Under the pieces are notes generated by a model that was not told the origin of the DNA, made no database searches, and saw nothing but the letters and a program-made list of their open reading frames with translations. From Patescibacteria group bacterium (lineage in GTDB: Bacteria > Patescibacteriota > Minisyncoccia > Phycocordibacterales > Phycocordibacteraceae), in NCBI GenBank assembly GCA_040388985.1, contig JAZKAU010000001.1, positions 1 through 57,358 of the forward strand: a stretch of 57,358 bases of DNA, read 5' to 3'. Each line of letters starts with the position of its first letter. Position 1 is the stretch's first letter. Below, piece after piece: positions 37 to 56,491 of the stretch. The position numbers were made by a program, and so were the translations under genes.

Positions 37-223
37 GCGGGCCCAGTAGGAATCGGTCACAGTTTACTAAACTCGAAGACTCGTTAAGTATCTGCGACCC
101 CGCCTCGCTGTCCTCGCAAGGCCTCGGACATGCTCCGGCTTTCGATTCCTACACGCGAGCAAAGCAGTTTGCTCGCTTGGGCCCGCAAATAGAAGAAGCG
201 CTTCTAAAGCGCTTCTTCTATTT
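37..223 (-). repeat. tRNA-Trp-linked palindromic module: displaced direct copy of the tRNA 3' end, ~90-nt conserved core, inverted copy of the tRNA 3' end, and a 26-bp hairpin
   Basis: The 19-nt GCGGGCCCAGTAGGAATCG at 37-55 equals 224-242, the T-loop-to-discriminator part of tRNA-Trp. An inverted copy lies at 143-152 plus 177-186, split by hairpin 155-176. A perfect 26-bp hairpin is formed by 178-203 and 207-232. Core boxes 62-90 and 113-127 are shared with the other tRNA-linked modules and with the repeats at 14143 and 23058. Confidence 0.75.
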
Positions 224-224
224 G

Positions 225-295
225 CGGGCCCAGTAGGAATCGAACCTACACTATCGGTTTTGGAGACCGATGTTCTACCACTAAACTATAGGCCC
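225..295 (-). tRNA. tRNA-Trp: tRNA-Trp (anticodon CCA)
   Basis: Hand-folded cloverleaf. Acceptor GGGCCTA/TGGGCCC, D stem GTTT/GAAC, anticodon stem TCGGT/ACCGA with loop CTCCAAA, T arm GTAGG-TTCGATT-CCTAC, discriminator G. CCA is not encoded. Confidence 0.9.
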
Positions 296-457
296 GAACG
301 AGACAATGCGACTGAATATATTCAGACGAATTCGTCGAGAGAGGGTTCTATATCCGTGCAAGCAACGGATATAGGCCCGTAACTAGGAGAGTAGCAGATT
401 CAGAGACCAAAATACAGGTTCGGCTGCTTGGGGAATCACACTCTTTGGCGCTTATAG

Positions 458-1555
458 ATGCCGTACAATAGGAGTACCTTCATGCGGCTCTATACCATTG
501 TCAGATTCCTTCCCGCAGGTCTTGCGCTTATGGCACTCATAGCAGTGCCGCATATCGGACATGCCGCAGGCCTTGGGGGAGTTTTCGACCCCATCATTCC
601 GAAGGACGGTTCATGTACCTGTCCGGGCTCTGCGCCTTCCTGGGGTTGCGTGCTCCAGGTCCTTCAGAACGTCATCAACGTAGCTATCGGGGTCGGTATT
701 ATCATATGCGTCCTGTGGCTCGCGTGGGCGGGCGCGCTCTTCATGATGAGCGGCGCAAATCCGGGACTGCGCGAGCAGGGCAAGACACGCATCGCTAACG
801 GTGTCATCGGCCTGCTCGTCATCCTCTCGGCATGGCTGGTCGTCGACTTCGTGATGAAGACGCTGTATGACCCGAATACGGCCTTCTCTGGGAAGAACTT
901 CGGACCTTGGAATAGCATTCTCGCGAGCAAGGGGAATGACTTCTGTATCGTGGCACATGACCCGGTTTCTCTCGCCTACGGAACGGTCGATATTCTAAAG
1001 GGCGTGACAGCCGGAACAGCTACGGGCCCTGGCGGCTTCCTCAATGGCTCGGGCAGTTGCGTGATTCCAACGTCTGGGCCATGCAGCGTGGCAAACCTGA
1101 CACCCTATTTCGGTAGTCAGCAGTTGGCTACGCAGGCGTCACAAGTCTGCTTTGGAGAGAGCGCCGGCATCATAAATCCGAAAACCACTACGGACTATAT
1201 GTATAACGATCCTCAGAAGCGCCCGTTCTCTGTCGGACTGTTCGCAATAAACTTGACTCAGAATGATCTCCCGGGCCTCCCTTGCAGCTCAAAGGCATTC
1301 AACGGAAAGAACTATACCGCAACCGTCAAGGATGAGACGCTCTATGCCAAATGCGTCGCAGCTGCTAAGACAGAATCCATCAATATCCAGAAGGCAGTCT
1401 CTCTCTATAACAGCCGCATAGGTAAGCCCGGAGGCCCTTGGAAGCCTTGGTCCGCTGCAAAGAATTGCGGCTTGGCATACACCTATAAGGATACCCTGGC
1501 GTTTACGACCGGATTAGGCGACTTCAATTTACGAATAACGCTACCAAGACTATGA
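458..1555 (+). CDS. Signal peptide plus two-TM TrbC/VirB2-type (T4SS-pilin-like) module, fused to a C-terminal SLT-type lytic transglycosylase-like domain
   Basis: N-terminal hydrophobic leader. A Cys-containing segment (CVLQVLQNVINV) is followed by TM1, the loop GANPGLREQGKTRI, and TM2. The C-terminal part carries ES (FGESAG), GLxxI (VGLFAINL) and YNxxxG (SLYNSRIG) in the order of the SLT motifs. Confidence 0.7.
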   Translation: MPYNRSTFMRLYTIVRFLPAGLALMALIAVPHIGHAAGLGGVFDPIIPKDGSCTCPGSAPSWGCVLQVLQNVINVAIGVGIIICVLWLAWAGALFMMSGANPGLREQGKTRIANGVIGLLVILSAWLVVDFVMKTLYDPNTAFSGKNFGPWNSILASKGNDFCIVAHDPVSLAYGTVDILKGVTAGTATGPGGFLNGSGSCVIPTSGPCSVANLTPYFGSQQLATQASQVCFGESAGIINPKTTTDYMYNDPQKRPFSVGLFAINLTQNDLPGLPCSSKAFNGKNYTATVKDETLYAKCVAAAKTESINIQKAVSLYNSRIGKPGGPWKPWSAAKNCGLAYTYKDTLAFTTGLGDFNLRITLPRL

Positions 1556-2103
1556 ATAAGAAGCTGATCATAGCACTGCTATGCGCGTTAGGGATACTTC
1601 TGGTACTAGGAGTACTGTTTGCGCTGCGTACGTCTAACCGCAACCCTGCTACCCCTTCGGTCGGGAACCCGTTTTCCGGGAGCTTGTCTTCATCTACTGC
1701 GCCCGGAACCCAGCAAGGGGTGATTTCCTTGCGCGCGCGCGACGGTTCGGCTATCTCGGCCACTGACGTCACTGCAGGCAAGACACCGCTTCCGGCTAGT
1801 AGCGACACCTACTATGATCTGGTCCACAATGGCATGGATACGTATGGAAACGAAGATGATCCTTTTGCCATACAGTACGCTGCGAAGAGTTCTTCCTTCA
1901 TCGTCTCGCTCCAGGAGGAACCCCTCGGGAAGTCCCGCCTTTCGGCAGAGACATTCTTACGCTCAACGCTCAATCTTACTGACGCGCAACTCTGCGAGCT
2001 CGATATAACGGTAGCCGTGACGCAAGCAGTGAACGAACAATACGCGTCTATGGGTAACTTGGGACTGAGCTTCTGCCCAGGTGCCGTTACGCTGCCGGAA
2101 TAA
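1552..2103 (+). CDS. Hypothetical membrane-anchored protein
   Basis: Its start overlaps the upstream stop (ATGA), suggesting translational coupling. It has a single N-terminal TM segment (LIIALLCALGILLVLGVLFAL). I recognised no domain. Confidence 0.6.
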   Translation: MNKKLIIALLCALGILLVLGVLFALRTSNRNPATPSVGNPFSGSLSSSTAPGTQQGVISLRARDGSAISATDVTAGKTPLPASSDTYYDLVHNGMDTYGNEDDPFAIQYAAKSSSFIVSLQEEPLGKSRLSAETFLRSTLNLTDAQLCELDITVAVTQAVNEQYASMGNLGLSFCPGAVTLPE

Positions 2104-2117
2104 GGTACACTTCTGAT

Positions 2118-3089
2118 ATGAAATACGTCGTAGCATGTGCAAGCTTCGCGCTCCTACTCCAGCTTGCTCCTGTGCCTGTCTATGCCGCTACGACCGGCTT
2201 ATTCGGTCCCACGAACCCCATCGTTCCGGCTGAGTGCTCCTGCGAGAAACAGAAAGCACCGGACGGCAAATCACTCATCACTACCGCGCCCGCCTACGGG
2301 TGCGTGCTTCAGACGCTGCAGAATGTCGTGAATGACGGCATATCGATCGCCATAGTCATATGCGTTCTCTGGCTCGCCCTTGCGGGTGCGCTTTTCCTGA
2401 TGAGCGCGGGAAATCCCGGTATGCGCGAGCAAGGCAAGACCCGCATCATGAATGCAGTCATTGGGTTAGTAGTCATACTTGCTGCCTGGCTCATCGTCGA
2501 TTTCGTCATGAAGACGCTGTATAACGAGAAGAGCGACTTCGGACCTTGGAATTCCATACTTGCCAGTAAGTCTGATACTGATAAATGCGTCGTCGCGACG
2601 AATCCTACCTCTATCGCTTCAGGTACGCTTAGCATACTGCAGAGCGTGACCCCGGGTACGTCGAGCGGTCCCGCCGCCGGAGGAGGGGTGGGTTCAAGCG
2701 GCTTGAATATTGCTGCCGCAACACACTATGCCACTATTCATTATCCAAATACTACGAGCGACAAGCATGCGTGTCTTGCCGGAGTTCAGCTCGCGCTTCA
2801 TGAGGGAGGAAAGACTTTAGCGTGTCCTCCTGACGGCTATGCCGATCAATGTGACGCGCCATTACTAAGACTCGGCTTCGCATCGCTGGGGTCATCCGAT
2901 CCTAGTCCGCTTGCGGGCGATATCGTAGTCATTCAACCGTTCCCGGGCGAGAAGGGAATCGGAGGGAAGGCAGGACACATTGCGATGTATAGCGGTACCG
3001 CTTGGATCTCTGACTTCACCCAGATAGATTTCTGGGGAGGACCAGGCTATCGTGCGAATCAGCCTGCGCACACTTTCTATCGCCCTTAG
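2118..3089 (+). CDS. Paralogous T4SS-pilin-like two-TM module fused to a C-terminal papain-like (CHAP/NlpC-P60-type) cell-wall hydrolase domain
   Basis: About 150 aa are highly similar to the 458-1555 product (CVLQTLQNVVN..GNPGMREQGKTRI..VDFVMKTLY..FGPWNSILASK), after which the two diverge. The C-terminus has candidate catalytic Cys (DKHACLAGV) and His (GHIAMYSG) residues. Confidence 0.7.
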   Translation: MKYVVACASFALLLQLAPVPVYAATTGLFGPTNPIVPAECSCEKQKAPDGKSLITTAPAYGCVLQTLQNVVNDGISIAIVICVLWLALAGALFLMSAGNPGMREQGKTRIMNAVIGLVVILAAWLIVDFVMKTLYNEKSDFGPWNSILASKSDTDKCVVATNPTSIASGTLSILQSVTPGTSSGPAAGGGVGSSGLNIAAATHYATIHYPNTTSDKHACLAGVQLALHEGGKTLACPPDGYADQCDAPLLRLGFASLGSSDPSPLAGDIVVIQPFPGEKGIGGKAGHIAMYSGTAWISDFTQIDFWGGPGYRANQPAHTFYRP

Positions 3090-3091
3090 CT

Positions 3092-3607
3092 TTATTCAAT
3101 AACTGAGTCCACTTTCCAAGCCCCCGGACCTCCTACAAGGCGTACTGTAAGCGATTTATTCGGATTATACGGAGGATCTTGCCTCAAATGAATGGTCACG
3201 ACTGCTTCGGACGAAGACTGACTTACGAGATCCGCTTTCATATTCATGAGCCATGAAGGCAATATGCTTTGGGCGAGCAATATAGGATCAGCATCATTGG
3301 CTTCGCCGATCGAATCAAATTGACTGTAAAAATCAGGTGTAAGCCACTGGCTAAGTTCGGTCTTGTAGCCGGGTGTGCCAGCAGATGTAGAATCAGCTGA
3401 AATCGAAGTAAGGTACCAGGTATAAAAGTCAGTGGTAAACGTGGTAGGCGATCTCTCCTTCCAGGTACTATTTGAAGAGATGTTGCCAAATGGGTCCGTA
3501 ACCTTCGTTGGGGTAGGGGAAGAAGGATAAAATACTTTATACAGAATAGCTCCGAGAAGGCCGAAACCTATCACCACCACCAATAGCCCAACAAGTATTC
3601 TTTTCAT
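3092..3607 (-). CDS. Hypothetical membrane-anchored protein
   Basis: 171-aa ORF with an N-terminal TM segment (ILVGLLVVVIGFGLLGAILY). No domain recognised. Confidence 0.55.
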   Translation of the reverse strand: MKRILVGLLVVVIGFGLLGAILYKVFYPSSPTPTKVTDPFGNISSNSTWKERSPTTFTTDFYTWYLTSISADSTSAGTPGYKTELSQWLTPDFYSQFDSIGEANDADPILLAQSILPSWLMNMKADLVSQSSSEAVVTIHLRQDPPYNPNKSLTVRLVGGPGAWKVDSVIE

Positions 3608-3632
3608 ACATTTATGCTAGCACATCACCTAA

Positions 3633-4445
3633 CTATTGCTGTAGCTTGCGCAGCCAAGCCTTCTGATGCCGTGCATAGTGCCAGAGCTTAGTAGACAAGG
3701 AAGGCAGGAGCGAGGCTTCGCTGCGTTCCCCTCGCAGATATTCGCCTACGATCCGGTATTCAAGACCAAGCTCATTCAGTCGGATATCCCCGACCCGCTC
3801 GCGCACCGCACGCACTTCATCTATAAGACCGCGCGCGAGTGCCTGTTCCAGTCGCGCGTCTATGCGCGCGCGCAATTCCTCTTTCGGGGGATCTATAGTG
3901 ATCCATTCGATATCGTACGCCGGCACGCTTCGTACGCGCTCGGGCACGCTCCCGTGCTCTGCAACTATCTCGAGCGCCCGTATCAGCCTGCGGGGATTAT
4001 GCGCATCTATGCGTGAAGCGCGTCTGGGATCGACCGCCTGCAGCCGTGTGAATAGCTCTTCAGCTGATAGTTTTTCAAGCTCATGGCGAAGGACCGGGTC
4101 GACAGAAGACGGCGGAAGGGCGTAGAGGAGCGCGTCGAAGTAGAAATGCGTACCTCCCGCGAGGATAGGCACTTTTCCGCGTGCCTGGATATCTTTGATC
4201 AACTCCTTTGCGTCATGCACGAAATCTCCTGCGCTGTAGGCGTCCTCAGGTTCGCGGACGTCAATGAGGTAATGCGGAATGCCACCCATCTCCTTCGTAA
4301 TCGTCTTCTCCGTGCCGATATCAAGCGTCCGGTATACCTGGCGCGAGTCGACAGAGATGACCTCGCCATCCAACTCCTTGGCCAGCGCGACTGCTTTGGC
4401 GGACTTCCCGGAGGCTGTCGGGCCGATGACTCCTATGATGCGCAT
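3633..4445 (-). CDS. miaA: tRNA dimethylallyltransferase (isopentenyl transferase)
   Basis: P-loop IGVIGPTASGKS, then SVDSRQVYRTLDIGTEK and IPHYLIDV. The start is set at the ATG giving MRIIGV; the ORF extends to 4472. Confidence 0.9.
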   Translation of the reverse strand: MRIIGVIGPTASGKSAKAVALAKELDGEVISVDSRQVYRTLDIGTEKTITKEMGGIPHYLIDVREPEDAYSAGDFVHDAKELIKDIQARGKVPILAGGTHFYFDALLYALPPSSVDPVLRHELEKLSAEELFTRLQAVDPRRASRIDAHNPRRLIRALEIVAEHGSVPERVRSVPAYDIEWITIDPPKEELRARIDARLEQALARGLIDEVRAVRERVGDIRLNELGLEYRIVGEYLRGERSEASLLPSLSTKLWHYARHQKAWLRKLQQ

Positions 4446-4497
4446 TGAGCTCATGTGCGCGGATAGTAGCATAGTATTTCTCTCCCACGAACGCTTT

Positions 4498-4526
4498 TAT
4501 ATATGGACTTACGAAGTCCATATATA
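4498..4526. promoter_or_regulatory. 29-bp perfect palindrome in the divergent miaA/ndk-like intergenic region; candidate operator
   Basis: TATATATGGACTT-ACG-AAGTCCATATATA. A near-identical palindrome occurs at 44897-44925. Confidence 0.4.
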
Positions 4527-4615
4527 TCTTCTCAGCTTTTGATTAGAAGAAATTTAGATTTATTTGATATCTGCTCTTGTAACATCTCAGAGTTCTTATT
4601 AAGGGGAGACAGGCC

Positions 4616-5056
4616 GTGCTTATATGCTGCATTATCAAGCCGCCGAGCCTGGCATGGGACAGGTCCATCCAGTCATTCTTGAGACAAGCAGGAGTTCCGA
4701 TAGTCACGACTCGACCGCTTGTCTACACTGAGACTATGATCAAGACGCTCTATGATCATATGGACGTTGAAGCGCAATGGAACATCGCACAGAGATACGA
4801 GCACAAGCGCGGATGCGCGCTTCTGGCTGATTTTCCGAGTATCGATACCTGTATGAGACTTATCGGACGAGAGAGCGATCCGCGAGCATGCGCGCCGCAC
4901 ACTATACGCGCACGGTTCGGAAGTAAGACCGAGCCGGAGCACGTCGGAGAATGGCTGTGGTGGGAGAATGCTCTGCATCGCCCGGTCGATGAGCGGGAAC
5001 GGCTGCGCGATCTTGCGCTTATCTTTCCTGAATGCGCACGGGGCGCGGACGAATAG
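4616..5056 (+). CDS. Divergent nucleoside-diphosphate-kinase-like protein
   Basis: GTG start, 146 aa. Matches the NDK layout: CIIKP (cf. IIKP), LIGRESDPRACAPHTIRARFG (cf. LLGATNP..GTIRGDF), and NALHRPVD in place of NxxHGSD. Confidence 0.55.
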   Translation: MLICCIIKPPSLAWDRSIQSFLRQAGVPIVTTRPLVYTETMIKTLYDHMDVEAQWNIAQRYEHKRGCALLADFPSIDTCMRLIGRESDPRACAPHTIRARFGSKTEPEHVGEWLWWENALHRPVDERERLRDLALIFPECARGADE

Positions 5057-5145
5057 TCCGCGCCCTTCTTGGTATCTAAGTATAAGACATGGTCACGAGT
5101 TGCGGATATATTGCTCCAAGTATTCGTTAACTTGCACTAGACTAG

Positions 5146-5307
5146 ATTGGACTTGGCACCCGTCACTAAGCTCGAGGACTCGCTAAGTCCGCCAGCCCGA
5201 GCTCGCGACGCTCGCAAAGCCTCGCATAACGCTCCGCTTTTCAAGTCCCACACAAAGAGCGCGCAGGCGCTCTTCTCTCCAGCCCCTCGCTCACTGCGTT
5301 CGTTCGG
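5146..5307 (-). repeat. tRNA-Leu-linked palindromic module
   Basis: TTCAAGTCCCAC (5240-5251) and CTCCAGC (5277-5283) are reverse complements of the tRNA-Leu T-arm and acceptor 3' strand (5316-5327, 5309-5315). They are split by hairpin 5255-5274. The outer stem pairs 5146-5155 with 5242-5251. Core boxes 5167-5189 and 5211-5225 match the Trp module. Confidence 0.65.
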
Positions 5308-5387
5308 TGCTGGAGGTGGGACTTGAACCCACAACCCGAGGGAGCGGGTTTTGAATCCGCCGCGTATACCGATTCCGCCACTCCAGC
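5308..5387 (-). tRNA. tRNA-Leu: tRNA-Leu (anticodon CAA), long variable arm
   Basis: Acceptor GCTGGAG/CTCCAGC, anticodon loop TTCAAAA, variable arm about TCCCTCGGGTTG, T arm GTGGG-TTCAAGT-CCCAC, discriminator A. There is one A-C mismatch at the base of the anticodon stem. Confidence 0.85.
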
Positions 5388-16905: not shown

Positions 16906-16976
16906 TGGGAGATCGTCTAATGGTAGGACAGCGGCCTTTGAAGCCGTGAATCTAGGTTCGATCCCTAGTCTCCCAG
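16906..16976 (+). tRNA. tRNA-Gln: tRNA-Gln (anticodon UUG)
   Basis: Acceptor TGGGAGA/TCTCCCA with a U1-A72 pair, anticodon stem GCGGC/GCCGT with loop CTTTGAA, T arm CTAGG-TTCGATC-CCTAG, discriminator G. Confidence 0.9.
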
Positions 16977-17140
16977 CAAATAAAGTGCGTGAGCAATTTT
17001 TTGCTGGGAGAAGTAAGCGTGGGGCGCTTACGGCTAGGGATCGAAGACCTTGTGAGCATTTTCTGAGTCCTCAAAGAAAATACACAAGGTGTACTGATCC
17101 TGTAAGGATCGAAGCGTAGTCGCGGCCCTAGTCTCCCAGC
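16977..17140 (+). repeat. tRNA-Gln-linked palindromic module
   Basis: A 12-bp hairpin pairs 16969-16980 with 17000-17011 and uses the acceptor 3' strand. A second hairpin is at 17013-17031. CTAGGGATCGAA (17034-17045) is the reverse complement of the tRNA T-loop and stem (16957-16968). An ~80-nt core follows. The 15-nt direct repeat CCCTAGTCTCCCAGC occurs at 16963-16977 and 17126-17140. Confidence 0.7.
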
Positions 17141-17688: not shown

Positions 17689-18366
17689 ATGAATACCCCA
17701 TCGATAGTTCCCTATACTGAACGGCTTACCTTGCTCGAATGCCGTCATGAATACGATGAGGTCTTTACCTATATATTCAAGCCAATGAATCCAGTCTCAT
17801 TCACGGCCGGAGAATACGCGCATGTCCGCCTGCTGAACCTTTCCGAAGACATACGGCGCGTACGCGAGTTCTCATTCGCATCTTCTCCGCAGGAATCGGA
17901 GGTCTGGTTTGCTGTCGATGGGAGATCGAAGAGCGAATATCAGCAGGCGTTGCGATCGCTTGCTCCTGGAGATGAGATCGAGATATTCAAGATAAAAGGG
18001 CACATGACCTGGCCGCCTCCCTCTCGTGATGTCGTGATGATCGCAAACGGAGTGGGTGCAGCACCATTCCGCTCGATGCTCCTGGACAAAGTTGAAAGGA
18101 ATCTCTCACTCACAACTACTCTTATAAGCGTGGCGCGGGAATCATTCCTGTATATGGATGAGTTCAGGAATCTTGCCGGAACGTATCTCCCGATACGGCG
18201 CGACCAGCTGGCCGAAACGCTTGAGGAGATTACGGACGAGCATCCGGGTGCTCACTACTGTGTCGCCGGTTCGAGCGATTTCGTACTAGACGTCGTACAG
18301 ACACTTTCAGACAAAGGCATCGTCCGAGTCGAGAGCGATGAATTCAAGGGTCTGCTTAGGGAATAA
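17689..18366 (+). CDS. FNR-like FAD/NAD(P)-binding oxidoreductase
   Basis: RxFS-type FAD motif (VREFSFASSP) and an NAD-binding glycine motif (MIANGVGAAPFRSML). Confidence 0.65.
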   Translation: MNTPSIVPYTERLTLLECRHEYDEVFTYIFKPMNPVSFTAGEYAHVRLLNLSEDIRRVREFSFASSPQESEVWFAVDGRSKSEYQQALRSLAPGDEIEIFKIKGHMTWPPPSRDVVMIANGVGAAPFRSMLLDKVERNLSLTTTLISVARESFLYMDEFRNLAGTYLPIRRDQLAETLEEITDEHPGAHYCVAGSSDFVLDVVQTLSDKGIVRVESDEFKGLLRE

Positions 18367-18458
18367 TAAATAGTGACTTACTCCGTTTCCGTAGAAAAGT
18401 TCCAACCTTGTCCCACACAGTCAGCGGGTCTTCAGTCGAATTAACTATACTTAAAAGT

Positions 18459-18797
18459 ATGATCTTTTCTTACTTCTTGGTCACGTATTCGCTTACCATT
18501 GTTCTTTCTAGAGTCTGGCTGTGGTTCGTGCCTCGACACGCACCACAGATCGGAAACTTTCAGTGGCACCACTGGATGACAGGCGTCCTCCTGATTGTCG
18601 TGTATCTTATATATCCAAATCTATTCTTACTTGCTATTGGTGCCGCATTGATTGTTGATCAGATTCCTCTGTTCTTTATCTTCAAAGGACTTAATTGGCC
18701 CGATGATTGTTGGAAAGAGTATCAATCAGTGTCTTCTACGATAGGGACTTTCCTCGTGTCTCTGATTGTTATGGTTGTATATTTATCAATAGCATAG
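18459..18797 (+). CDS. Hypothetical integral membrane protein (about 4 TM segments)
   Basis: Strongly hydrophobic 112-aa product. The ATG at 18459 is preferred, because the TTG at 18408 lies inside the intergenic motif. Confidence 0.55.
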   Translation: MIFSYFLVTYSLTIVLSRVWLWFVPRHAPQIGNFQWHHWMTGVLLIVVYLIYPNLFLLAIGAALIVDQIPLFFIFKGLNWPDDCWKEYQSVSSTIGTFLVSLIVMVVYLSIA

Positions 18798-18859
18798 CGA
18801 AGGAGAGTTCCAACCTTGTCCCACACTGCCAGCAAGTTAAATTTGATATACTTCTCAAC

Positions 18860-19405
18860 ATGAAAGTAATCCTGTTTGGTGACAGTATGCTTGCCCGATT
18901 CGGTAAAGAGCGTCTCCAAAAACTAGAATCAATGGTGCCGGAAGGTGATTTCTACAACTGTGCTACAGGCGGTTGGGATAGTAATGACTGCGCTATGAAG
19001 GCCCCATATATTGCATCCCTTAAGCCAGACGCGGTCGTCATCTCCGTAGGCACGAATGATGCCTCGCCTTGGAAACAAGTCCCGCTAGAGATTTTTAGAA
19101 ACAACCTATTGAACATTCGCGATAGCTTTAAGGATTCGAAAGTCATTTTCTTTCCACCACCTCCTGTCAACGAAGATAAACAAGCAGGTGAGTTGATAAG
19201 GAGCAACGAATTGATGCAGCAGTATTCCTCCGCTGTAAAAGATGTGTCTTCAAGTGCGGCTGTCGCGTGTATCGACTCGTGGGCAATATTTAGCTCACTT
19301 CTTGAACAAGGTCAGGACTACCATGTTGAGGATGGAGTACATCTCAACGATAATGGGAATGACCTGCTGACTGATCAGCTAGCGGAGGCGCTGAGTTCGA
19401 AATAG
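18860..19405 (+). CDS. SGNH/GDSL-family hydrolase
   Basis: Block I FGDSM, block III GTNDAS, block V DGVHLN. The ATG at 18860 is preferred over the ORF-track start at 18707. Confidence 0.8.
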   Translation: MKVILFGDSMLARFGKERLQKLESMVPEGDFYNCATGGWDSNDCAMKAPYIASLKPDAVVISVGTNDASPWKQVPLEIFRNNLLNIRDSFKDSKVIFFPPPPVNEDKQAGELIRSNELMQQYSSAVKDVSSSAAVACIDSWAIFSSLLEQGQDYHVEDGVHLNDNGNDLLTDQLAEALSSK

Positions 19406-19487
19406 GGTCCCACGTTGTCCCATACGGTAAGCAAACTGAATGTGCGTAAAATATTATTGAGCTTTAGGAAGTTGTATAATCGTACAT

Positions 19488-19916
19488 ATGACGACCCTAA
19501 ACCCTTGGATTAATTTTAATGGCAATGCTGAAGAAGCTTTTAATTTTTACAAGTCAGTCTTTGGCGGCGATTTCAAGAAGATAATCCGCCTCAAAGATCT
19601 TGCCAGTTCTGAGTTCCCGGTTTCGGAAGAAGACGCAAATAAGATACTGCAGATCGTCTTGCCCATAGGTGACTCGAATACATTAATCGGAAATGACGTA
19701 CCCAACTTCATGGGAAAGGTGAGTGAGAATGAGAACAGGAGTAAGGTCCACGTTGCGACCAGCAGCAAAGAAGAAGCTGAGAGGATATTCAACGGTCTTT
19801 CCGTGGGAGCAGATGTAGAGATGCCGATCGGTGAGAGTGCGTGGGGAACCTACTTCGCTATGTTCAGGGACGTGTACGGTATTGAATGGGTCATAGAATT
19901 TGATCCAAGTAACTAA
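19488..19916 (+). CDS. VOC (glyoxalase/PhnB-like) family protein
   Basis: The N-terminus NPWINFNGNAEEAFNFYKSVFGG and the C-terminal WGTYFAMFRDVYGIEW are typical of PhnB-like VOC proteins. Confidence 0.7.
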   Translation: MTTLNPWINFNGNAEEAFNFYKSVFGGDFKKIIRLKDLASSEFPVSEEDANKILQIVLPIGDSNTLIGNDVPNFMGKVSENENRSKVHVATSSKEEAERIFNGLSVGADVEMPIGESAWGTYFAMFRDVYGIEWVIEFDPSN

Positions 19917-19975
19917 GGTCACGCTTATTCCAATATCCTCCCGTGCTGCCGGCCAAGGATGCTAGGATAGGCGTA

Positions 19976-20800
19976 ATGATTGAAGCAATCCCACAGCCTC
20001 AGAAGGAAGAGAACGCTTCTCTGCCGTCTCTGGGAACGGTCGAGCAACTCCTCTCCGAGGAGTTGCGTGGAGCAGAACAAGATCTGGCAATAATAGGCGA
20101 ATCTTTGCGAGCATTTGCGAGGCTCGTAGAAGCAGAGCGTCCTGATGTTCTTGTCTTTCTTGACGTCAGTGTCCGTATCTTCGGTACTCCCTACCTGAAA
20201 TACTTTTCTGAGAGAATGGGAAGAGGTGCTCCCTCGATCCGCTTTTACAATGATCATAATTTGAAGGGCGCCTTTCTGGGATATACGCCTCTAGATCCTA
20301 TAGTTCAGAATGACTTCGAATCACTGAAGGGCAAGAAGGTATTCTTTGTTGACGAGACCTTTTCCGAAGGAAAAGGCGCGCTAGCACTGCTTGAAGCTTC
20401 GTCACGGGCTGGAATCGCGGCTCGCTATATTGCTCTTACTAAAGATCCTGAGCCTCCTTCAAGTAAGATCCTAAATGAGGAGGATGAGATTCTTGTTGAA
20501 CAAGATATAGAGGACGGGAATATTATTATTTACGATCATCCTATTCATAATCTTTTCTCTCGATACGGCAGCAGACTCTACGTTAAAGAGGAAGTGGAAG
20601 GCAAGACTCGTCCCATGCAGGTTTCTCGAGAGAAGGCGACGGCCGCTAGTAGTATCCCTCATGCAGATAGCTATAGTGTGCCCCCAGAAGGCATGTCGAG
20701 TGAAGAGTACCAATTAGCTGTTTCAGCGAAATTCGATGCTAGCGTTAGGGATTTGAAAGAAAAGATCTATCAAACACTTAAGGCTGAAGAGGGCGTATAA
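19976..20800 (+). CDS. Phosphoribosyltransferase-like protein
   Basis: PRPP-loop-like KKVFFVDETFSEGKG, preceded by VLVFLDVSVRIFGTPY. The call is weak. The ATG at 19976 is preferred, because the GTG at 19943 lies inside the intergenic motif. Confidence 0.45.
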   Translation: MIEAIPQPQKEENASLPSLGTVEQLLSEELRGAEQDLAIIGESLRAFARLVEAERPDVLVFLDVSVRIFGTPYLKYFSERMGRGAPSIRFYNDHNLKGAFLGYTPLDPIVQNDFESLKGKKVFFVDETFSEGKGALALLEASSRAGIAARYIALTKDPEPPSSKILNEEDEILVEQDIEDGNIIIYDHPIHNLFSRYGSRLYVKEEVEGKTRPMQVSREKATAASSIPHADSYSVPPEGMSSEEYQLAVSAKFDASVRDLKEKIYQTLKAEEGV

Positions 20801-20901
20801 CGGCTCCAGTATCGCCTGCACCCTAATTTGTCGAGGATAAACAGATCCGGCAATTCCGGACTACGAATGTACAGGGACAAGAATAGTGCTATCGTTTAGG
20901 C

Positions 20902-21648
20902 ATGGCTGAACCTCTTCCAGCGAACGCATTCTTTGATATAAATAAGCTTCCTTCTGAAAAAGGACTGCTTTTGTTCGGTCTTTCGATGAATAAGCTTTTC
21001 TTACGCCAGAGCCCCGAACACTGTGTAGAGGACATTCGACACTTTCACACAGCAAAAGTATCCAAGCCGCTTATCGGCCTGAATTTTATCTACAGTGAAT
21101 TCCTATATCTATACAGCGACAAGCCGGCCCCGGAGTTGAAAGACTCCTTTATGAACCAGATCATTAGTCACAAGAATGGCCTGCAGAATATTCTCGGAAA
21201 GAACAACCTGGATTTCCAGATTCAGCATGCCTTTAACTATATGGCGTGGGCCCAGCTATATGTCGGGACCAAAGACTTTAATCAGCTATTTGCGTCTTTG
21301 AAAAAAATATACGCCACAGACGAACTATTTCAGAGATACATCAAGGAAGACAGTGAGGCATACGGCAGAGAGATGGGAGACAATCAAGTGAATTTCTTTT
21401 TGGAAGAGATTCTCATGTTTCACCTGCTTACCAAGAACCAGGTGAAGCTTCCGAACGAATATATCGAAGGCCAGCAGAAGTGGATACTATACTGCTATCC
21501 TGGCCGTCCGCTCAAGAGTACCGTCTATATGTATCAACTGAATCCCTTTAAGCTCGATTGGAAGGATAACCCGTATCAGAACGCTCACTTTGATCTGGAA
21601 GCCAAGCAACTCATTGAATTTGATAGGGTAGATTTAGAGACCTACTAG
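20902..21648 (+). CDS. Hypothetical protein (248 aa); weak motif-level resemblance to cyclodipeptide synthases
   Basis: LLLFGLSMNKLF (aa 22-33), NFFLEEILMF (aa 164-173) and ILYCYPGRP (aa 195-203) fall at spacings reminiscent of the CDPS Ser / Tyr-x3-Glu / Tyr motifs. See the findings. Confidence 0.6.
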   Translation: MAEPLPANAFFDINKLPSEKGLLLFGLSMNKLFLRQSPEHCVEDIRHFHTAKVSKPLIGLNFIYSEFLYLYSDKPAPELKDSFMNQIISHKNGLQNILGKNNLDFQIQHAFNYMAWAQLYVGTKDFNQLFASLKKIYATDELFQRYIKEDSEAYGREMGDNQVNFFLEEILMFHLLTKNQVKLPNEYIEGQQKWILYCYPGRPLKSTVYMYQLNPFKLDWKDNPYQNAHFDLEAKQLIEFDRVDLETY

Positions 21649-21670
21649 CGCCAATAGCTATATTGAAAGC

Positions 21671-22513
21671 ATGAAGAACTGGCTGGTAACCGGAGGAGAG
21701 GGATTCATCGGAGGAAGGATCGCTAGGGCGACGGGTGCGACGTTATACGACCTGAAATCGGCTAAGGATATTCTCGATACTCAGGAGCTGCTTCAGGCCT
21801 GTGGAGATGTCGACGGGATATTCCACTGCGCGGCCAAGATAAGCGTTCCTGAGAGCTTCCGAGAACCGGAGGAATATCACCTCCATAACGTTCAAGGTAC
21901 GGCGAGCGTTACCCGGGCCGCAAAAGCTAGGAATGCCAAGGTAGTCTTCTCTAGCAGCGCTGCGGTATATGGCGAATCTGATACGCCGGTCCGAGAAACA
22001 GATGCGCTTCACCCGATGTCGCCCTATGCGCAGAATAAGAAGGATGGTGAAGCGCTATTGAAGGAATCAGGAATTCCGTACGCTGTTCTGCGGTATTTCA
22101 ATGTGTACGGCCCTGGCCAATCTGCGGCCTATGCGGGAGTCATTACCATGTTCATTCATAGCGCGCTCAGGAATGAAGATCTTGTCATCTATGGCGACGG
22201 CACCCAGGTGCGCGACTTCGTATATGTCGACGACGTGGTCGCGGCTAATATAAGAGCGATGGAATCAGAGGGCATCTCAGGAGAGACCTTCAATATCGGA
22301 AGCGGAACGATGACTTCTATAGGGCAGCTCGCCGAAGAGATCATCAGGCTTACCGGTTCAGGATCCAGGATTACCTACAAGTCTGCGCGTGAAGGAGATA
22401 TCGTGTACTCCCAGGCTGACGTTTCAATGGCTACGAATATCCTGAATTGGAAGGCATCGGTATCGCTTACGGAAGGGTTGGAGCGAACGATCGAGTCATA
22501 TAGAGATGTGTAA
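21671..22513 (+). CDS. NAD-dependent epimerase/dehydratase (SDR family)
   Basis: VTGGEGFIGGRI Rossmann motif and a YxxxK motif (SPYAQNKKD). Confidence 0.85.
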   Translation: MKNWLVTGGEGFIGGRIARATGATLYDLKSAKDILDTQELLQACGDVDGIFHCAAKISVPESFREPEEYHLHNVQGTASVTRAAKARNAKVVFSSSAAVYGESDTPVRETDALHPMSPYAQNKKDGEALLKESGIPYAVLRYFNVYGPGQSAAYAGVITMFIHSALRNEDLVIYGDGTQVRDFVYVDDVVAANIRAMESEGISGETFNIGSGTMTSIGQLAEEIIRLTGSGSRITYKSAREGDIVYSQADVSMATNILNWKASVSLTEGLERTIESYRDV

Positions 22514-56241: not shown

Positions 56242-56314
56242 GGGCCGTTAGCTCAGTTGGTAGAGCATCTCATTTGCAATGAGAGGGTCGCAGGTTCGAA
56301 TCCTGTACGGTCCA
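56242..56314 (+). tRNA. tRNA-Ala: tRNA-Ala (anticodon UGC)
   Basis: Acceptor GGGCCGT/ACGGTCC with the G3-U70 wobble pair, D arm GCTC-AGTTGGTA-GAGC, anticodon stem TCTCA/TGAGA with loop TTTGCAA, T arm GCAGG-TTCGAAT-CCTGT, discriminator A. Confidence 0.9.
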
Positions 56315-56491
56315 CAAACGCAACCGCCGAAAGGCGGCTTTTGCGTTTGTGGACCGTAGCATAGTGTCTGCACACTCTGCGGCAGGATTCGAAAGTGGTT
56401 GAGTATGTCGCAGCGAGCCCGAGGCTTTGCGAGAACGAAGCGAGACACGAAACCCATACTGTCCCCGTAAGGGACGAATCCTGTACGGTCA
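56315..56491 (+). repeat. tRNA-Ala-linked palindromic module
   Basis: A 17-bp perfect hairpin pairs 56307-56323 with 56341-56357 and uses the acceptor 3' strand. A second hairpin is at 56363-56376. GCAGGATTCG (56382-56391) is an inverted T-arm copy. The core contains the box CCCGAGGCTTTGCGAG (56418-56433). The 16-nt direct repeat CGAATCCTGTACGGTC occurs at 56297-56312 and 56475-56490. Confidence 0.75.

Follow-up and report, generated by a model that had tools for sequence, protein, structure and literature searches.

A candidate family of small non-coding insertion elements at the 3' ends of tRNA genes in Patescibacteria

Introduction

What is the structured DNA that follows a tRNA-Ala gene in a patescibacterial genome, and why does it carry the end of that gene in both orientations? 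The gene lies near one end of the stretch that we analysed, positions 1 to 57,358 of the forward strand of contig JAZKAU010000001.1 (assembly GCA_040388985.1), from a Patescibacteria group bacterium of the Phycocordibacteraceae. This whole stretch of 57,358 nucleotides is called the window. A sequence-only reading of the window, made without database searches, had noted that the end of the tRNA-Ala gene is repeated downstream and that an inverted copy of the same end, split by a hairpin, lies between the two. It did not recognise this module as an insertion, which close relatives lack at the orthologous sites.

We regard the structure at the Ala locus, with moderate confidence, as one copy of a family of non-coding and non-autonomous insertion elements of about 160-190 bp, which lie at tRNA 3' ends in Patescibacteria (the candidate phyla radiation, CPR). 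A mobile element is preferred to a housekeeping RNA because of the insertion polymorphism, the repeat resembling an attachment (att) site, the tandem accretion, the patchy occurrence, the common orientation with the tRNA and the selected single-strand fold that are described below.

Results

The tRNA-Ala(UGC) gene occupies 56242-56315 on the plus strand (ARAGORN; 72.9 bits with the Rfam tRNA model). Its discriminator A, at 56314, is followed by CAAA and CCA is not encoded; the claim that none of the four tRNA genes of the window encodes CCA was confirmed. All of the coordinates that the sequence-only reading gave for this locus hold on re-inspection. In tRNA sense, the module consists of a left direct-repeat copy (DR1), a terminator or spacer, an inverted repeat of the acceptor end (IR-acc), a hairpin (hp2), an inverted repeat of the T arm (IR-T), a structured core and a second direct copy (DR2). 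DR1 is part of the functional tRNA, which stays intact. At the Ala locus, where all parts lie on the plus strand, DR1 is CGAATCCTGTACGGTC at 56297-56312, from C56 to about position 71 of the tRNA. The same 16 nucleotides stand at 56475-56490 as DR2, which repeats the tRNA 3' end directly and marks the right boundary of the insertion, in agreement with the earlier claim of a repeated tRNA end.

Between these copies, a terminator-like palindromic hairpin, CAAACGCAA-CCGCC-GAAA-GGCGG-CTTTTGCGTTTG, occupies 56315-56349. Its stem is prolonged outward through pairing of the acceptor 3' strand with IR-acc, and the arms 56306-56329 and 56335-56358 are 92% complementary over 24 nt, with CCGCC-GAAA-GGCGG inside. 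This first hairpin has the usual features of an intrinsic terminator, a GC-rich stem-loop and a T tract (56324-56337, then CTTTTGCGTT). IR-acc, TGGACCGTA at 56350-56358, is the complement of the acceptor 3' strand and the discriminator, and carries an A opposite U70, whereas tRNA-Ala itself has G3. By folding, hp2 (56359-56380) is a hairpin of 22 nt with a 9-bp stem and the loop CTGC at 56368-56371. IR-T, GCAGGATTCGAA at 56382-56393, is the complement of the T-loop and the T-stem 3' strand (tRNA positions 54-65). IR-acc and IR-T together are the reverse complement of tRNA positions ~54-73, and hp2 splits them at the junction of T-stem and acceptor. The same split was confirmed at the tRNA-Trp, tRNA-Leu and tRNA-Gln genes of the window.

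The core at 56394-56474 (81 nt) is of a variant type that is shared with the Gln locus. It folds into a long irregular stem, in which CGAGGCTTTGCGAG is the motif at 56420-56433, and then into a hairpin of 5 bp at 56461-56475 whose loop is YGUAA. A 16-mer of this core had been said to equal a box of the Trp locus at 15 of 16 positions; the correct number is 14. Within the window, the exact 14-mer CGAGGCYTTGCGAG occurs only in the Trp, Leu and Ala modules. The proposal of one architecture with tRNA-specific flanks at the four loci stands, and this architecture recurs in other genomes.

Related genomes indicate how the module came to lie there. Five loci (L142-L146) encode a ParB that is 80-84% identical to the ParB of the window and share with it the gene order pilin-pilin-miaA-(NDK)-tRNA-Leu-ParB-RelA-TopA-DprA-SerS-Dus-DnaX. 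Their tRNA-Trp and tRNA-Leu genes are module-free. In L143, tRNA-Trp is followed directly by CCTTCACGGATT (the CCTTCAC flank). In the window, the same sequence (CCTTCACAGAAT) stands after DR2 of the Trp module rather than after the tRNA. Since the flank of the L143 tRNA reappears past DR2, we read the window Trp locus as an insertion of ~187 bp with the 19-nt repeat CGATTCCTACTGGGCCCGC on either side. Behind tRNA-Leu, the ancestral terminator (GGGCGCGG...CCGCGCCC) is displaced, to ~70 nt beyond DR2. No empty Ala site was found, since relatives do not keep the synteny of ddl; as at Trp, the sequence past DR2 at Ala would be the ancestral flank of the tRNA.

The arrangement is not private to this assembly. 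The independent Logan assembly of SRR26324622 contains the Ala module on contig L140, identical base for base. In a pattern scan of one genome per species most matches were unrelated, and three were true homologues: L004 behind tRNA-Gly(UCC) of 'bacterium SKS1.bin108', L057 behind tRNA-Leu(CAA) of a Saccharibacteria metagenome-assembled genome (MAG) and L087 behind tRNA-Leu(UAG) of a Patescibacteria MAG. A scan of metagenomes added copies behind tRNA-Thr (L121), tRNA-Glu (L130) and an unrecognised tRNA-like gene (L124). A covariance model, R1, was built from seven cores. It recovers the copies of both scans at 42-102 bits, and found two diverged members, L132 behind tRNA-Ala and L133 behind tRNA-Gly(CCC) in a Uhrbacteria genome. 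The Ala copy of the window, with clean arms and an atypical core, matches R1 weakly (15.4 bits, E 0.12). When this match is included, R1 copies lie behind 11 tRNA or tRNA-like genes in at least nine genomes, and the scaffold is found behind at least seven tRNA species. All 12 copies examined for strand are co-oriented with their tRNA. Occupancy is patchy: in other MAGs some tRNAs have the module and others do not. Two patterns were also scanned against viral contigs, and neither yielded a member or a full-length parent element with this core.

As a background control, we took the 50 tRNAs with at least 250 nt downstream from all loci collected. An inverted copy (at least 9 nt) of the tRNA's own 3' end was present downstream of nine of them, and seven of these had a direct copy of at least 12 nt as well. 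All nine are module-bearing, and the remaining 41 show neither copy. The module is far beyond chance.

The gene before the module in L124 (~100-250) has a tRNA-like 5' acceptor strand, GCAGGTG, and a perfect T-arm (...CACCTGTTCCA), with ~70 extra nucleotides in mid-gene. ARAGORN calls no tRNA there, even with introns allowed.

The inverted arms fit the tRNA beside which they lie. In every copy the longest pairing of IR-T (9-13 nt) is with its own tRNA, with a tie with one other tRNA in two copies; for IR-acc, too, the copy's own tRNA is the best partner, apart from the window Leu copy and the Thr copy of L121. Pairing of IR-T with DR1 is never worse than with DR2, and that of IR-acc is worse with DR1 only in Leu, by 1 nt. 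The arms are intact in Leu, L087, L004 and L124, where DR2 has mutations, is shortened or has been lost. The direct repeat itself is bounded by landmarks of the tRNA. It begins at T-loop C56 in every intact case (Trp, Ala, L057, L087, L121 and L133) and ends with the tRNA gene, which means the discriminator (+1) in genes without an encoded CCA and the position past CCA in L121 and L133 (21 nt); its length across copies is 14-21 nt. IR-T reaches two nucleotides (T54 and T55) past the left edge of this repeat.

At the acceptor wobbles of Ala (G3·U70), Trp (U6·G67) and L057 (G7·U66), the arm is the Watson-Crick complement of the 3' strand. Because these positions carry the 3'-strand complement and not the base of the tRNA 5' strand, the arm copies the tRNA 3' end in antisense. 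The same wobble complements exclude that the 5' half of the tRNA was duplicated, and hp2 begins with AGC whatever the D-arm sequence. Past the discriminator, the arm matches what the genome has there, CCG in L057 and, in the window copies, CAA, and not CCA. This excludes a primer-binding site for mature tRNA and indicates that the arm pairs with the gene or the precursor rather than with the mature tRNA. We also rejected a T-loop intron with DR2 as the true 3' end, as Leu, L057, L087, L004 and L124 have an intact DR1 and a DR2 that is mutated or missing.

In the tRNA genes of this clade that lack an encoded CCA, the discriminator is very often followed directly by CAA(A), at empty and occupied sites alike, including those of L142-L144. 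Judged from sequence, this suggests a lineage-specific context of 3' processing.

The identity of cores ranges from 63 to 83% and tracks neither tRNA identity nor genome. The Gly copy L004 and the Leu copy L057 share 83%, the Leu copy L087 and the Thr copy L121 79%, the two Leu(CAA) copies 64%, and the window Trp and Leu copies 68%. This independence of core identity from tRNA identity argues that one scaffold lineage stands behind different tRNAs with matched arms. The earlier doubt that simple copying of one element could explain the loci was fair, as core similarity is independent of the tRNA while the arms fit their own tRNA.

A terminator hairpin follows DR1 in Trp, Ala, Gln, L124, L132 and L133, and three Leu copies have instead a spacer of 17-24 nt without a terminator. 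The hairpin hp2 folds perfectly in all nine copies compared (8-10 bp), with stem sequences that are unrelated between copies, the loop CUGC in six of the nine and closure mostly by AGC...GCG. It is inserted at the boundary of T-stem and acceptor in the antisense arm. IR-T ends with TYGAA in all copies. The commoner core has two domains. P_a consists of GGAGCC, a 2-nt bulge, three variable pairs, the 14-nt CGAGGCYUUGCGAG and then GGCGAG, with potential tandem G·A pairs flanking G-C pairs. P_c is GGUCG-NNN-A-YACU ... AGUR-AA-NNN-UGACC with a variable apex. The Ala/Gln variant has its long stem and 5-bp YGUAA-loop hairpin in their place; this hairpin is common to the Ala module, the Gln module and L124, with a stem that differs between copies (by eye). 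L124 combines both core types.

That the conserved fold be supported by covariation across homologous loci had been set as a test by the sequence-only reading, and the core passed it. In the alignment of seven core sequences with 22 pairs, 8 of the 22 pairs have changed on both sides, and 89.9% of the cells are paired, against 24-49% with the partners shifted by 1-3 columns. The observed values were reached in no more than 1 of 500 shuffles. One G·U pair persists in six of the seven copies, and of 10 copies, 9 fold more stably as the sense than as the antisense strand. On these two grounds, the selected structure belongs to the tRNA-sense single strand.

Each A-type core contains CGAG four times at spacings of ~9-11 nt (CGAGGCTTTG / CGAGGACGG / CGAGCCGGGGT / CGAGAGC), for example at 56412-56444 and at 100-130 on the minus strand; two of these CGAGs could pair through tandem sheared G·A pairs. 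Mini-hairpins GCGAAGC/GCAAAGC occur at some core apices, and related GAG-rich motifs in the spacer loops before IR-acc.

The window contains three further copies. The Trp copy (37-242, minus strand; 92.8 bits with R1) lies behind tRNA-Trp (224-295, minus strand) and comprises DR1 at 224-242, the terminator hairpin at 186-223, IR-acc at 178-185, hp2 at 154-177, IR-T at 141-153, the core at 56-140 (motif 113-126, P_c 55-99) and DR2 at 37-55, after which the ancestral flank CCTTCAC follows. The Leu copy (5140-5325, minus strand; 79.8 bits with R1) lies behind tRNA-Leu (5306-5387, minus strand). It has DR1 at 5309-5325, a 20-nt spacer without a terminator, IR-acc at 5277-5286, hp2 at 5253-5276, IR-T at 5240-5252, the core motif at 5211-5224 and a decayed DR2 at 5140-5155. 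Between this DR2 and the ancestral terminator sits a degraded older element of the L057 type, recognised by its P_c domain in a local alignment (5085-5142, minus strand; it ends with CTCGTGACC). The local score of this remnant with the L057-type P_c is 45, against a mean of 18 (standard deviation 3.3, maximum 30) for shuffles. The sequence thus points to successive insertions behind one tRNA-Leu, with the older, decayed copy displaced downstream.

The Gln copy has the variant core (16963-17140, plus strand) and lies behind tRNA-Gln (16906-16977, plus strand). Its parts are DR1 at 16963-16977, IR-acc at 17004-17010, hp2 at 17011-17033, IR-T at 17034-17045, the YGUAA hairpin at 17096-17110 and DR2 at 17126-17140. 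Just 3' of this locus, at 18000-22000, the G+C content is 0.46-0.47, against 0.53-0.59 elsewhere in the window. By its composition this stretch may be foreign; a second copy of the tRNA-Gln end was not found in the window.

According to Pfam, the 20 largest open reading frames (ORFs) of the window are of an ordinary chromosomal kind, among them ParB, RelA/SpoT, TopA, DprA, Dus, TGT, UvrABC, peptidase M1 and pilins, and the annotation also lists two Ddl genes and an M23 peptidase. By the homologues of its ParB and Ddl, the window belongs to the Patescibacteria (Paceibacteria/Parcubacteria-like). When the window and 10 related loci were searched with Rfam 15, only tRNAs reached the gathering threshold. 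A relaxed search gave weak sub-threshold matches to generic hairpins (miRNA precursors and snoRNAs) and none to a mobile-element RNA or ribozyme family. Literature searches, also with the motif itself as text, turned up no description of the element. No promoter-like site of its own was found in the element, which is co-oriented with the tRNA.

Several known motifs were considered by eye and rejected. There is no CUGAUGA...GAAA core of a hammerhead, the 3-nt bulge of a K-turn is missing from the tandem G·A motifs (GGAGCC...GGCGAG and CGAG...CGAG), an omega-like topology as in H/ACA RNAs leaves none of the target nucleotides unpaired, and the AGC at the base of hp2 does not qualify as group II domain V.

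Discussion

How might such an element work? Its active form would be the sense single strand, most likely an RNA read through from the tRNA, with sense single-stranded DNA as the alternative; the three Leu copies without a terminator before the element and the GNRA or YGUAA loops favour RNA. In this strand, the antisense arm would pair with the copy of the tRNA end and close the core into a compact multi-helix fold. The arm would serve for target recognition through base pairing with the tRNA-gene end, by analogy with IS200/IS605 elements, IS110 bridge RNAs and the exon- and intron-binding sites (EBS/IBS) of group II introns, and catalysis would come from a protein acting in trans, encoded elsewhere in the genome or by another mobile element. 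Since the same scaffold stands behind at least seven tRNA species with perfectly matched arms, some process would re-template ~20 nt of target-matching sequence. Retargeting to new tRNAs would have to occur, and templated correction of the quasi-palindrome of DR1 and arm may be one way.

If the module is an insertion element, it is an undescribed small mobile element of the CPR that unites att-like insertion at tRNA ends, a structured core and a target-complementary arm. More tentatively, and rather doubtfully at present, it could belong to a new class of nucleic-acid-guided mobile elements, made of a ~170-nt scaffold of RNA or single-stranded DNA, a split ~20-nt guide, an enzyme acting in trans and a guide that is rewritten for each tRNA species. 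Such an element would be a naturally reprogrammable targeting module that is detached from its enzyme. Finding the re-templating process and the moving enzyme could reveal a new guide-dependent insertion mechanism. Apart from mechanism, the element alters the 3' flank of the tRNA (in Trp from CCT to CAAA and a terminator) and adds strong palindromes. Its edges coincide with contig breaks in short-read CPR assemblies, and the model R1 allows it to be annotated.

Several points weigh against an insertion element. No integrase, transposase, recombinase, reverse transcriptase or TnpB was found among the 20 largest ORFs of the window (Pfam), and the ORFs adjoining copies elsewhere showed no common partner and, beside most copies, no evident enzyme; as no element-linked mobility enzyme was found, mobility in trans is an assumption. 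Neither a transcript nor a circular intermediate nor active excision has been seen. The choice between gain and loss rests on parsimony, since a precise deletion between DR1 and DR2 would also leave 'empty' sites. The window copies are old and diverged (Trp and Leu 68% identical) and no recent burst is seen. L130, L133 and L132 have only partial arms, so the arm is not indispensable for persistence. Finally, we know of no element type that joins a 16-21-nt repeat bounded by landmarks with an internal antisense copy of the target.

Known mobile elements share some of these features and lack others. Like MITEs (miniature transposable elements with inverted repeats), the module is small, non-coding, structured, multi-copy, patchy and presumably mobilised in trans, and its size, copy number and presence-absence polymorphism agree with a MITE. 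However, conserved terminal inverted repeats were not found: the inverted arms are tRNA-specific at each locus instead of family-wide, and the direct repeat of 14-21 nt is bounded by C56 and the tRNA end, unlike a short target-site duplication of fixed length.

Another likeness is offered by elements that recognise their target through base pairing. IS200/IS605 elements, whose end hairpins work with guide tetranucleotides, and the omega-RNA of TnpB, the bridge or seek RNAs of IS110/IS1111 and the EBS/IBS of group II introns all place flank-complementary sequence inside the element. As in these, the complementarity of the module is arranged around a hairpin and a structured single strand is implicated. 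In contrast to them, no linked Y1 (HUH-type) transposase, DEDD recombinase, TnpB or reverse transcriptase was found; neither a Y1 transposase nor TnpB was present among the tested ORFs of the 57-kb window. The complementarity of the module to a single strand spans ~20 nt, against 4 nt in IS608. As IS200/IS605 elements and the palindrome-associated elements derived from them (PATEs) insert 3' of a 4-5-nt target without duplication, a model in which DR2 is borne by the element would fit, and here it is indistinguishable from the alternative. In bridge RNAs the complementarity is split over both strands, and two internal loops pair with the target and donor ends. In the module both halves of the arm pair with the sense strand, and no DEDD recombinase ORF adjoining it was found. 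For some IS110 members, one report describes stand-alone non-coding RNA modules (PMC12288879). The core of ~80-110 nt is far too small for a group II ribozyme with its six domains; it has no Rfam group II match and the boundaries GUGYG...AY are absent. In the attP site of CTX-phi and the attC sites of integrons, an internal inverted copy lets a single strand fold into a duplex that mimics the chromosomal target, as it may in the module, but the module has no Xer or IntI context, its target is a tRNA-gene end and it contains an extra structured core.

Prophages, integrative and conjugative or mobilizable elements (ICEs/IMEs), islands and cis-mobilizable elements (CIMEs) that target tRNAs resemble the module in their insertion at the tRNA 3' end, the intact tRNA and the repeat from T-loop to tRNA end, as well as in a displaced original end contiguous with the old flank and in tandem accretion. 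It is conceivable, though in our judgement unlikely, that the module is a mini attL-attR remnant or a mini-element mobilizable in cis: a phage, plasmid or island that integrated at the T-loop with a replacement tRNA 3' end and was then deleted internally down to its att arms, so that the hairpins would be incidental or protein-binding DNA. The repeat from the T-loop to the 3' end is the classic identity block of T-loop-targeting integrases, and the original flank does lie past DR2, the distal copy. Further points in favour are the tandem accretion at the Leu locus, the CGAG motifs of the core at ~10-bp spacing and the elements with large serine recombinases that adjoin tRNA 3' ends in related genomes (L142 and L130). 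However, the covariation, the G·U pair on the sense strand and the GNRA/YGUAA loops point to a single-strand fold and not to duplex arm sites. One scaffold stands at seven or more tRNA species with matched arms, whereas integrase lineages normally keep to one tRNA. The inverted symmetry of a core site is absent beside DR2, no full-length parent with this core appeared in the scanned viral contigs, and no integrase is found inside the element. With its ~170 bp, its lack of cargo, its covarying fold, its antisense copy of the target and its presence at many tRNAs per scaffold, the module differs from these integrative elements. A dyad-symmetric attP of a large serine recombinase was also considered and rejected, as arm and DR2 are ~100 nt apart and the arm is split.

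The large serine recombinase genes that adjoin tRNA 3' ends lie at 3531-4994 of L142 and at 967-2700 of L130, and nothing ties them to the module. In L142 the recombinase gene runs into the 3' end of tRNA-Trp, within a region (382-4994) that also encodes a rolling-circle Rep and an Mrr-like nuclease. In L130 it runs into the 3' end of tRNA-Ser/Glu. The tRNA 3' ends of these lineages are also attachment sites for larger mobile elements.

The fold also recalls tRNA itself. An improbable reading, to which we give about the same weight as to an integrase remnant, is that of an RNA useful to the host and transcribed together with the tRNA, as a 3' trailer or a mimic of the tRNA top half. RNase P, RNase Z or the CCA-adding enzyme would process it, and its role would lie in tRNA maturation or quality control, or it would be a stable small RNA. 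By analogy, a 7-8-bp acceptor-like stem would be set on a lengthened T-stem, and hp2 would take the place from which the D and anticodon arms emerge. The order IR-acc, hp2, IR-T and DR2 indeed mirrors tRNA positions 1-7, 8-48, 49-53 and 61-73, and CCA, or CCA with one mismatch, follows DR2 in several copies (Trp CCT, Gln CTA, L121 CCA, L133 CCA). The element shares the orientation of the tRNA, lacks its own promoter-like site and in the Leu copies is preceded by no terminator, and its structure is kept across distant CPR lineages. Stacked acceptor- and T-like helices, a side hairpin at 7/8-48/49 and in some cases a 3' NCCA are shared with tRNA-like RNAs such as viral tRNA-like structures, mascRNA and the tRNA-like domain of YrlA, a bacterial Y RNA. 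The mimicry is imperfect, however. The equivalent of the T-loop is fully paired, no D-loop/T-loop interaction is present, the Ala identity pair G3·U70 is lost, the Rfam tRNA covariance model gives no score and, unlike in tRNA-like RNAs, the sequence is copied from the 3' strand of the neighbouring tRNA. Furthermore, DR2, which a mimic requires, is often decayed or absent while the arm still fits the real tRNA. Close relatives and most tRNAs have no module, and thus it is not needed for tRNA maturation. The degraded tandem copies resemble parasitic accretion.

A passive cassette is less probable again, and we think it quite unlikely. Natural transformation and homologous recombination would spread the module with the tRNA gene and DR2 as homology arms and with no dedicated enzyme. 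This agrees with the failure to find an element-linked enzyme, with DprA and the type IV pilin-like genes in the window and with a right repeat boundary at the tRNA end, where sequence conservation between genomes stops. Copies within one genome are also as diverged as copies across phyla-level lineages. On the other hand, a cassette leaves the antisense arm, hp2 and the conserved fold unexplained, exchange by RecA would have a very short right arm to work with (16-21 nt), and a cassette predicts that cores track tRNA identity, whereas the Leu(CAA) pair shares 64% and a Gly/Leu pair 83%.

An assembly artefact or chance repeat, to which contig breaks at the tRNA-Ala end (L001/L140) and just past DR2 (L141) might point, is refuted by the identical module that L140 spans as a whole, by homologues in unrelated assemblies from several sources, by covariation in the core and by the absence of either repeat from all 41 background tRNAs, and we give it practically no chance.

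The short-read contigs break at the end of tRNA-Ala, where the Logan contigs L001 and L140 overlap by 30 nt (~56286-56316), and just past DR2 (the NCBI contig L141, ~56495). These breaks could result from graph branching at a second identical tRNA-Ala 3' end or from a mixture of filled and empty alleles.

Among the matches rejected from the pattern scan, two kinds are conserved sequences in their own right and the others are chance. At 25 loci of Eremiobacterota, Cand. Cybelea and Vulcanimicrobiota (e.g. L047, L060, L065 and L069), CGAGGCYTTGCGAGGCGTTGCGAG lies in a conserved region of more than 500 nt that is repeated within genomes and is not beside tRNAs. This is probably an unrelated repeated gene or element that shares the motif by chance. 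The other is a separate repeat element of ~130-250 nt, found in multiple copies in one Lloydbacteria MAG (L021, L058, L063, L078 and L101) and at ~200-330 of L121. It carries CGAGGCTTTGCGAG as the loop of the stem GACTCGCG/CGCGAGTC, with the arms AAAAGGTTTAATACC.../...GGTTTAATACCTTTT. It may belong to a wider superfamily with a common protein-binding motif. In L121 this repeat sits between tRNA-Thr and the tRNA-end element.

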